NCBI RefSeq assembly: GCF_003334335.1
Contig: NZ_QOWQ01000060.1
Length of the DNA stretch: 14,550 nucleotides
Origin: Escherichia coli
Lineage (GTDB): Bacteria > Pseudomonadota > Gammaproteobacteria > Enterobacterales > Enterobacteriaceae
Reading direction: 5' to 3' (one strand)
Positions 1 to 824 of the stretch are shown here, piece by piece. Numbering within the stretch: the first letter of the stretch is position 1; every line of letters starts with the position of its first letter. A program made the position numbers and the translations under genes. Under the pieces are notes generated by a model. It had not been told where the DNA came from and did not search any database. It worked only from the letters and a program-made list of their open reading frames with translations.

Positions 1-824
1 GTCAGAAATATACGGCCGGCAAGGTGTGGAGCTGAGCCGTTCACTGCTGTCGGGCTGGGTGGATGCATGCTGCCGGCTGCTGTCTCCGCTGGAAGAGGCG
101 CTTCATGGCTATGTCATGACTGACGGCAAACTCCATGCCGATGATACCCCGGTCCAGGTACTGCTGCCGGGTAATAAGAAGACGAGGACCGGGCGGTTGT
201 GGGCGTATGTTCGTGATGACCGCAATGCCGGGTCAGCGTTGGCACCTGCAGTGTGGTTCGCTTACAGCCCGGACAGAAAAGGCATCCATCCGCAGACTCA
301 TCTTGCTTGCTTCAGCGGTGTGCTGCAAGCGGATGCGTACGCCGGGTTCAACGAGCTGTATCGCAATGGTGGGATAACGGAAGCTGCCTGCTGGGCTCAT
401 GCCCGCCGAAAGATCCACGATGTGCACGTCCGCATCCCGTCAGCACTGACGGAAGAAGCCCTGGAGCAGATCGGTCAGTTGTACGCCATAGAGGCGGATA
501 TAAGGGGAATGCCGGCAGAGCAGCGGCTTGCTGAACGTCAGCGAAAAACGAAACCGCTGTTGAAATCCCTGGAAAGCTGGTTGCGTGAAAAGATGAAGAC
601 CCTGTTCTTCGGCTCTGGCCATGGTGGTGAGCGGGGAGCGCTACTGTACAGCCTGATCGGGACGTGCAAACTGAATGACGTGGATCCAGAAAGCTACCTT
701 CGCCATGTGCCTGGCGTCATAGCAGACTGGCCGGTCAACCGGGTCAGCGAACTGCTTCCGTGGCGCATAGCACTGCCAGCTGAATAACACATCCCCGTCA
801 ATACGGCCCTCGCTGTACGCTTAC
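1..824 (+). mobile_element. IS66-family insertion sequence, right-hand portion (left part lies outside the window)
   Basis: The transposase reading frame is open from base 2. The sequence ending at 824 (acgcttac) is the reverse complement of the GTAAGCG motif typical of IS66-family terminal repeats. The boundary is inferred and was not confirmed against the other end. Confidence 0.65.
2..787 (+). CDS. IS66-family transposase (TnpC), C-terminal part; 5' end outside the window, possibly carrying an internal in-frame deletion
   Basis: The frame is open from base 2, so the Met at 26 is not the true start. The translation (IYGRQGVELSRSLLSGWVDACCRLL ... LYSLIGTCKLNDVDPESYLRHV ... NRVSELLPWRIALPAE) matches remembered IS66 TnpC C-terminal sequence. 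The block between LREKMKTL and GGERGALLYSLIG looks shorter than in canonical TnpC. Confidence 0.85.
   Translation, partial: SEIYGRQGVELSRSLLSGWVDACCRLLSPLEEALHGYVMTDGKLHADDTPVQVLLPGNKKTRTGRLWAYVRDDRNAGSALAPAVWFAYSPDRKGIHPQTHLACFSGVLQADAYAGFNELYRNGGITEAACWAHARRKIHDVHVRIPSALTEEALEQIGQLYAIEADIRGMPAEQRLAERQRKTKPLLKSLESWLREKMKTLFFGSGHGGERGALLYSLIGTCKLNDVDPESYLRHVPGVIADWPVNRVSELLPWRIALPAE

Follow-up and report, generated by a model that had tools for sequence, protein, structure and literature searches.

An in-frame deletion derivative of ISEc8 in the fec island of Escherichia coli, with a most likely inactive transposase and a second copy in yehR

The left edge of a 14,550-nt stretch of Escherichia coli DNA (GCF_003334335.1, contig NZ_QOWQ01000060.1; the whole stretch is hereinafter designated the window) holds part of a deletion derivative of the insertion sequence ISEc8. 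The transposase gene tnpC of this element has lost 153 bp in frame, and the shortened TnpC is most likely dead. The element has probably moved into yehR, most likely with TnpC supplied in trans. We consider this account as a whole probable, and hold it with good confidence.

The window is chromosomal DNA, and its first 1,000 bases are 100% identical to many complete genomes, e.g. NZ_CP068155.1, in which the equivalent of window 1–787 is annotated as "tnpC: IS66 family transposase". The protein is WP_001297235.1 (461 aa), and window 2–787 encodes the C-terminal 262 residues of this IS66-family TnpC. The N-terminus is missing from the window because the window edge falls at codon 201; the complete gene of 461 codons (L001:5402-6787) starts 599 bp upstream. 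A 5' truncation of tnpC was rejected, because the whole gene is found in the matching genome and only the window edge cuts it. Three consecutive genes, tnpA (126 aa), tnpB (115 aa) and tnpC, occupy L001:4628-6787, with tnpA and tnpB intact and directly upstream; Pfam HTH_Tnp_1, TnpB_IS66 and DDE_Tnp_IS66 match their respective products. Both ends of the IS carry GTAAGCGTACAGC... repeats, which are imperfect and start with 5'-GTAAGCG; the first 13 bases are identical, and partial identity extends to about base 27. Matches elsewhere that cover only the IS end at window 824–828. The element is 2,289 bp long (L001:4536 to window 824), which becomes 2,442 bp when the 153 bp are added. Intact ends and a defective transposase gene are both present in it.

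2–787, + strand: 3' part of tnpC (codons 201–461 and the stop codon) of the internally deleted ISEc8, identified by translation, by a 100% match to tnpC of NZ_CP068155.1 and by Pfam.
798–824, + strand: right terminal inverted repeat (...GTACGCTTAC), with the IS end at 824; its reverse complement matches the left end GTAAGCGTACAGC... at L001:4536.

The layout tnpA-tnpB-tnpC and the terminal repeats starting GTAAGCG are common to this element and ISEc8, and the two share 99.3% nucleotide identity over 2,289 bp, with 15 SNPs and one 1-bp indel, the latter a frameshift in the ISEc8 reference copy (L003). Outside the gap, TnpC is 98% identical to that of ISEc8. The window element differs from ISEc8 in lacking the 153 bp, in five lineage-specific amino-acid changes, in being essentially single-copy, and in having no target duplication at the fec locus. 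ISEc22 of ColIa-type plasmids is also similar, with a TnpC that is 89% identical and collinear outside the gap and with a DUF6404 gene at its right end, but it has the full 51-residue block and its DNA diverges by about 14%.

The original prediction held that only FFGSGH lies between SLESWLREKMKTL and GGERGALLYSLIGTCKLNDVDPESYLRHV, in place of about 50 residues with DNN, AEN and GRKN motifs, and ascribed this to an in-frame deletion of about 150 bp. The translation of window 2–787 bears out the reading: it runs ...SLESWLREKMKTL-FFGSGH-GGERGALLYSLIGTCKLNDVDPESYLRHV..., with only FFGSGH between ...REKMKTL and GGERGALLYS.... Alignments of DNA and protein with the IS66-family elements ISEc8 (L003; TnpC WP_000998093.1, 512 aa) and ISEc22 (L004; TnpC 512 aa) give one clean gap at the predicted position, exactly 153 bp or 51 codons, with the rest collinear and no gap-free full-length alignment. 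The residues lost correspond to ISEc8 402–452, SRHSELAKAFAYALNQWPALTYYANDGWVEIDNNIAENALRAVSLGRKNFL, and all of the named motifs (DNNxAEN and GRKN) are in this block.

In ISEc8, the lost segment is bounded by two CCTGT pentamers, a 5-bp microhomology. The sequence here retains a single CCTGT, as is typical of deletions between short direct repeats, and the 153 bp were probably lost in frame by slippage or illegitimate recombination between the two pentamers.

601–605, + strand: deletion junction, with the single remaining CCTGT; the Leu codon at 602–604 is the fusion codon (DNA and protein alignment with ISEc8 and ISEc22).

The gap is derived rather than ancestral, because the block is present in ISEc22 and in a set of 108 diverse family members (33–53% identical to ISEc8), and because Pfam coverage is lost here. 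Specifically, the block columns contain 0–1% gaps among the 108 sequences, no member of which is without the block. Pfam DDE_Tnp_IS66 (PF03050) matches over positions 1–283 of 284 in ISEc8 and over 1–222 of 284 here, and the score is 355 bits for ISEc8 but 258 bits here. The match lacks its last 61 positions and DDE_Tnp_IS66_C is still matched, so that the short TnpC has no complete DDE_Tnp_IS66 catalytic domain. The converse possibility, that the 51-residue block is an insertion in ISEc8, was rejected because the block is conserved across the whole family. An assembly artefact as the source of the gap was also rejected: the identical junction is found in 2,219 complete genomes, and thousands of independent assemblies share it.

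The near-invariant acidic residues of the catalytic region among the 108 sequences are D247, D311, E364 and E438, with D433 at about 90%. Specifically, D247 is invariant, D311 is conserved at 99%, E364 at 97–99%, E438 and N450 at 98%, and N434/N435 at 91–92%. Residues of the lost block conserved at 90% or above are A410, Y413, G428, N434, N435, E438, G447, R448, and N450. Protein alignment places E438, the Glu of DNNxAEN, inside the deleted block. Three other features of the catalytic region are retained in the window.

140–145, + strand: codons of D247 (140–142) and D248 in strand β1, first catalytic Asp of the DDE triad, retained; D247 is invariant, the strand spans 243–255, and D248 aligns with ISCth4 D175.
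332–334, + strand: codon of D311, second catalytic Asp, retained; 99% conserved, located after strand 306–310, and aligned with ISCth4 D241.
389–400, + strand: CWAH motif (C330...H333), which opens the α-helical insertion domain, retained; C330 and H333 are invariant and align with ISCth4 C262/H265.

Sequence searches of the PDB gave no match for either ISEc8 TnpC or the 108-sequence profile, and a fold search was used instead. The AlphaFold2 model of ISEc8 TnpC (L003:2003-3538), built with the 108-sequence alignment, has a mean pLDDT of 93.6 and a pTM of 0.83. The model contains strands at 243–255 (with D247), 260–271, 283–289, 306–310 (with D311 directly after), and 325–328, and helices at 295–300, 314–321, 331–344 (C330/H333 at its start), 348–367 (with E364), 372–398, 406–426, and 435–447 (E438 near its start). 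These elements follow the RNase H order β1(D247)-β2-β3-α1-β4(D311)-α2-β5, then CWAH, a helical bundle (331–426), and the helix 435–447 with E438.

Among solved structures, the model is most similar to the IS256-family transposase of ISCth4 (Foldseek E 3.5e-7, probability 1.0), and Hermes comes next. The active site of ISCth4 consists of D175, D241, and E348 (PMC7780238). Its four-helix insertion domain (residues 261–325) begins with the C262/H265 motif (CxxH) and lies between a core strand and the catalytic-domain helix α12, with E348 downstream (PMC7780238). A profile–profile alignment of the IS66 family with ISCth4 and IS256, for which the ISCth4 sequence was recovered from a PDB alignment with an IS256 sequence as the query, is weak by itself (E 0.025, probability 1.9%), yet it is collinear. 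It pairs D248 with D175 (one residue off D247), D311 with D241, C330/H333 with C262/H265, and E438 with E348. ISCth4 TnpA (PDB 6XG8/6XGX; PMC7780238) is the best structural match of modelled ISEc8 TnpC, but it belongs to another IS family, is about 12% identical, has different N-terminal domains and works with no accessory TnpA/TnpB, so that the two are related only by fold and weak profile similarity.

Conservation, model topology, the fold match to ISCth4, the published ISCth4 site, and the weak but collinear profile alignment together suggest that E438 is most likely the Glu, the third residue, of the DDE triad. If so, the deletion removes this residue along with the last helix of the insertion domain: the lost residues 402–452 would comprise that helix and the next one, which carries DNNxAEN. 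E364, near-invariant and retained in the short TnpC, could be the triad residue on sequence conservation alone; in the model it is in the second helix of the insertion domain. From the conservation and the model, the short TnpC is most likely catalytically dead. It would retain the coiled coil, the zinc finger, both catalytic Asp residues, and CWAH, but would probably be unable to form the metal-binding active site, and hence to cut or join DNA. In the literature we found no statement of the position of the IS66 DDE residues, and PMC3281130 names no catalytic residues. The CxxH insertion-domain class appears to include IS66-family transposases, because the fold of the model is nearest to ISCth4 and then Hermes and because CWAH opens an α-helical insertion domain; we found no paper that places them in this class.

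The substitutions in the short tnpC are consistent with loss of function. The gene differs from that of ISEc8 by seven non-synonymous and four synonymous changes, an omega of 0.58, as compared with 0.098 between ISEc8 and ISEc22. At least 7 non-synonymous changes out of 11 would be expected with P = 0.004 under an omega of 0.1, and the observed ratio is compatible with neutrality. Polarised with ISEc22, the lineage-specific substitutions are R199C, K262R, R324G, D457G, and L488P. R199C is located just upstream of the window (L001:5996-5998) in the PLYRQ motif, at a position that is Arg in 108 of 108 family members, and is probably a second disabling change. Because omega is raised from 0.098 to 0.58 and R199C falls at a 100% invariant position, the sequences indicate that the deleted lineage is under relaxed constraint. 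The other four substitutions, identified by codon-by-codon comparison polarised with ISEc22, are in the window.

185–187, + strand: K262R, codon AGG.
371–373, + strand: R324G, codon GGG.
617–619, + strand: D457G, codon GGC (Gly); Asp in both ISEc8 and ISEc22.
710–712, + strand: L488P, codon CCT.

The deletion was counted with a 61-base query centred on the junction and an E-value limit of 1e-14, which excludes half-matches; the default E-value gave a miscount, as full-length copies entered as two joined half-matches. Of 5,426 complete E. coli genomes, 2,219 (~41%) carry the deletion, at 2,408 places (median 1 and maximum 3 per genome), 58 of them on plasmids. The undeleted block occurs at 6,073 places in 1,469 complete genomes, with a median of 2 and a maximum of 19. 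Counting the junction between the right end of the IS and the fec-side flank gave 2,198 places in 2,167 genomes, which puts some nine tenths of the deleted copies at the fec locus. Vertical inheritance of the fec island explains the wide distribution. The inverted repeats and intact tnpA and tnpB are kept, and in roughly 41% of E. coli genomes the element would therefore be a passive neighbour of the fec operon.

In PLSDB, 61 plasmids likewise carry the deletion junction. In all three plasmid copies examined (NZ_CP036204.1, NZ_CP062864.1, and NZ_CP119405.1; IncFIB and IncHI1B), tnpC is cut upstream by IS1, the right flank is kept, a phytase-like esterase gene adjoins at the same distance, and the fragment is bounded by IS1 or IS26. 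The retained right flank and the upstream cut by IS1 indicate that the plasmid fragment is hitch-hiked chromosomal cargo. The two common short TnpC variants occur in only two contexts, the fec locus and yehR, in the 81 contigs read, with about 50 further places beyond these. In one genome (L023:711-2951, CM129858.1), another IS66-family element with a 523-aa TnpC is inserted in tnpB of the deleted ISEc8, leaving two 97-aa TnpB fragments. In the literature on ISEc8 we found no mention of the deleted form and no description of this deletion.

At the fec locus, the element has no 8-bp target duplication, with AAATAGTG on the left and TTTTGTTC on the right (L001:4528-4535 and the window from 825, respectively). 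In an alignment with the plasmid flank of ISEc22 the right flank matched poorly, since a DUF6404 gene survives in the window only by its 3' end; tblastn resolved this. On ColIa-type plasmids, an intact DUF6404 gene lies some 48 bp past the right end of ISEc22 (L004:3088-3306).

830–901, + strand: remnant of a DUF6404 gene (3' third, with an in-frame stop) abutting the IS end; tblastn with the L004 DUF6404 protein, 62% identity, E 1.7e-7.

The truncated gene next to the IS suggests, from the sequence, either a later deletion beside the IS or a shared ancestral IS66–DUF6404 junction. Further along the window, two short fragments of IS3-family transposase genes (2666–2797 and 11526–11675, on opposite strands; PGAP annotation of an identical genome) bracket fecIRABCDE (3085–10630), and they may be leftovers of a composite-transposon-like unit that brought fec. 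Directly after the second fragment, dndB and the start of dndC (DNA phosphorothioation) occupy 11860–14550, which indicates that the window spans a mosaic genomic island. The original prediction had also spoken of a general decay of mobile elements in the window; the two IS3 fragments fit this description, but the IS is otherwise complete, and the statement is only loosely true.

The second context shows the deleted element at a new site. In strain 05_3471, a complete 2,289-bp deleted copy is located between yehQ and yehS, interrupting yehR. A perfect target duplication of 8 bp, GAACGGCA, flanks this copy, whose full sequence is identical to that of the element at the fec locus of strain E2865. 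We found the yehR junction in 82 genomes, all of them large EHEC-type chromosomes (O26 and relatives); among the matches listed, 40 of 40 junction records carry the PGAP name of the short form. Strain RM8385 (CP028112.1; L019 and L020) has both the fec-locus and the yehR copy, and the two share a private A-to-C change at IS position 358, which is absent from both loci in O26 strains. As far as the sequences go, this common SNP points to gene conversion between the copies or to a more complex history.

Undeleted sequence is found in yehR-positive genomes as well. The chromosomes of 2013C-4187, 12089, and 07_3986, all yehR-positive, have the undeleted block at two to three places, where the annotation is an uninterrupted ISEc8-family transposase. 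One undeleted tnpC from a yehR-positive strain was inspected (L022:255-3442, NZ_CP074921.1); it is open, encodes 523 aa, and has ISEc38 directly upstream, without tnpA or tnpB. This tnpC begins at the end of the ISEc38 (ISL3-like) transposase gene, an arrangement that looks like an IS-into-IS insertion giving an N-terminally altered TnpC reading frame. A search for intact ISEc8 on plasmids in the yehR-positive strain E2865 found none: pE2865-1 is a phage plasmid of the P1 type, and the only IS66-family elements of pE2865-2 are others, with frameshifts. ISEc8 is active in EHEC, where it has for example inserted into stx2a (PMC6776261).

The target duplication and the undeleted relatives suggest that the yehR copy was most probably mobilised in trans as a non-autonomous element, with TnpC from undeleted ISEc8. 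At least one move, into yehR, would have occurred in this way, most probably with an undeleted ISEc8 in the same cell. The prediction that the copy is "probably inactive" thus holds, by inference, for catalysis by the protein, but not for the element, which keeps its inverted repeats, tnpA and tnpB and has a copy in yehR with an 8-bp duplication; this suggests that the deleted element is better described as non-autonomous than as a wholly dead relic. Non-autonomous transposon derivatives of this kind, formed by internal deletion, include KP and other deleted P elements, and Ds relative to Ac. The ISEc8 derivative resembles them in its intact ends, its internal transposase deletion, and its new insertion with a duplication among full-length relatives. 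It differs in that only a small, in-frame segment is deleted, so that the protein is nearly full-length, and in that mobilisation in trans is inferred from one event.

The yehR copy can also be accounted for without any movement of the deleted element: an intact ISEc8 would have entered yehR, generating the 8-bp duplication, and gene conversion from the fec copy would later have replaced its sequence from end to end. The private SNP in RM8385 (C at position 358), which has no counterpart in O26, is most easily explained by conversion, and several homologous ISEc8-type sequences reside in the same genomes as the yehR copy. However, this scenario takes two events instead of one, and the conversion tract would have to cover at least positions 110 to 2330 of 2,442 bp, including 15 SNPs, the 1-bp indel, and the 153-bp deletion. 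None of the 40 yehR junction records among the matches listed names the full-length ISEc8 transposase, and undeleted copies, which outnumber the deleted ones, should serve as conversion donors no less often. We regard conversion as unlikely. A new insertion of a deletion-bearing element could alternatively mean that the 461-aa TnpC still works, either because the block is dispensable or because E364 is the third catalytic residue, in which case the element would be autonomous. The frame is open, both Asp residues and CWAH are kept, E364 is 97–99% conserved, and the yehR insertion has a proper target duplication. We nonetheless judge this very improbable, given that the block is universally present, with six positions conserved at 90% or above and the GRKN motif, and that the fold and profile comparisons put the catalytic Glu in the lost segment. 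Further, the short form has a copy number of about 1 per genome as against up to 19 for undeleted ISEc8, occurs in only two genomic contexts in the 81 contigs, and has accumulated non-synonymous changes, one at an invariant Arg.

A dead TnpC could also be kept for a function, by analogy with the KP repressor of the Drosophila P element and the Tn5 inhibitor protein: the short protein would bind ISEc8 ends or poison TnpC multimers and thereby damp ISEc8 transposition. Consistent with this, the deletion preserves the reading frame, the short protein still has the N-terminal coiled coil, zinc finger, and DNA-binding parts, the inspected copies have an open ORF, and 41% of complete genomes carry the short form. 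By contrast, an omega of about 0.6 and R199C at an invariant position speak for relaxed constraint and not for maintenance, vertical transmission of the fec island accounts for the broad distribution, and EHEC genomes with the short form still contain many ISEc8 copies. Such a retained function is improbable in our view. The bolder analogy, in which TnpC is a KP-like dominant-negative regulator that restrains ISEc8 in 41% of E. coli and spreads as its non-autonomous passenger, would be slightly more improbable again. We therefore favour a deletion derivative with a most likely dead TnpC that was most probably moved into yehR in trans.

The deletion has consequences for annotation. NCBIfam NF033517 matches the short protein in two stretches, with 352 bits as compared with 460, and because this exceeds the cut-off of 180, PGAP calls the short TnpC an "IS66 family transposase" and sets no pseudogene flag. 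In over 2,200 complete E. coli genomes, a deleted tnpC is thus annotated as an intact transposase, and IS censuses based on intact transposases overcount active ISEc8.

The element is an ordinary defective IS copy. What is new is that the allele is fixed and very widespread, that it is annotated as intact, and that one natural event suggests mobilisation in trans. The deletion junction provides a convenient and stable marker of the fec-island lineage, and the copy in yehR provides a natural hint that IS66-family elements may be mobilised in trans.
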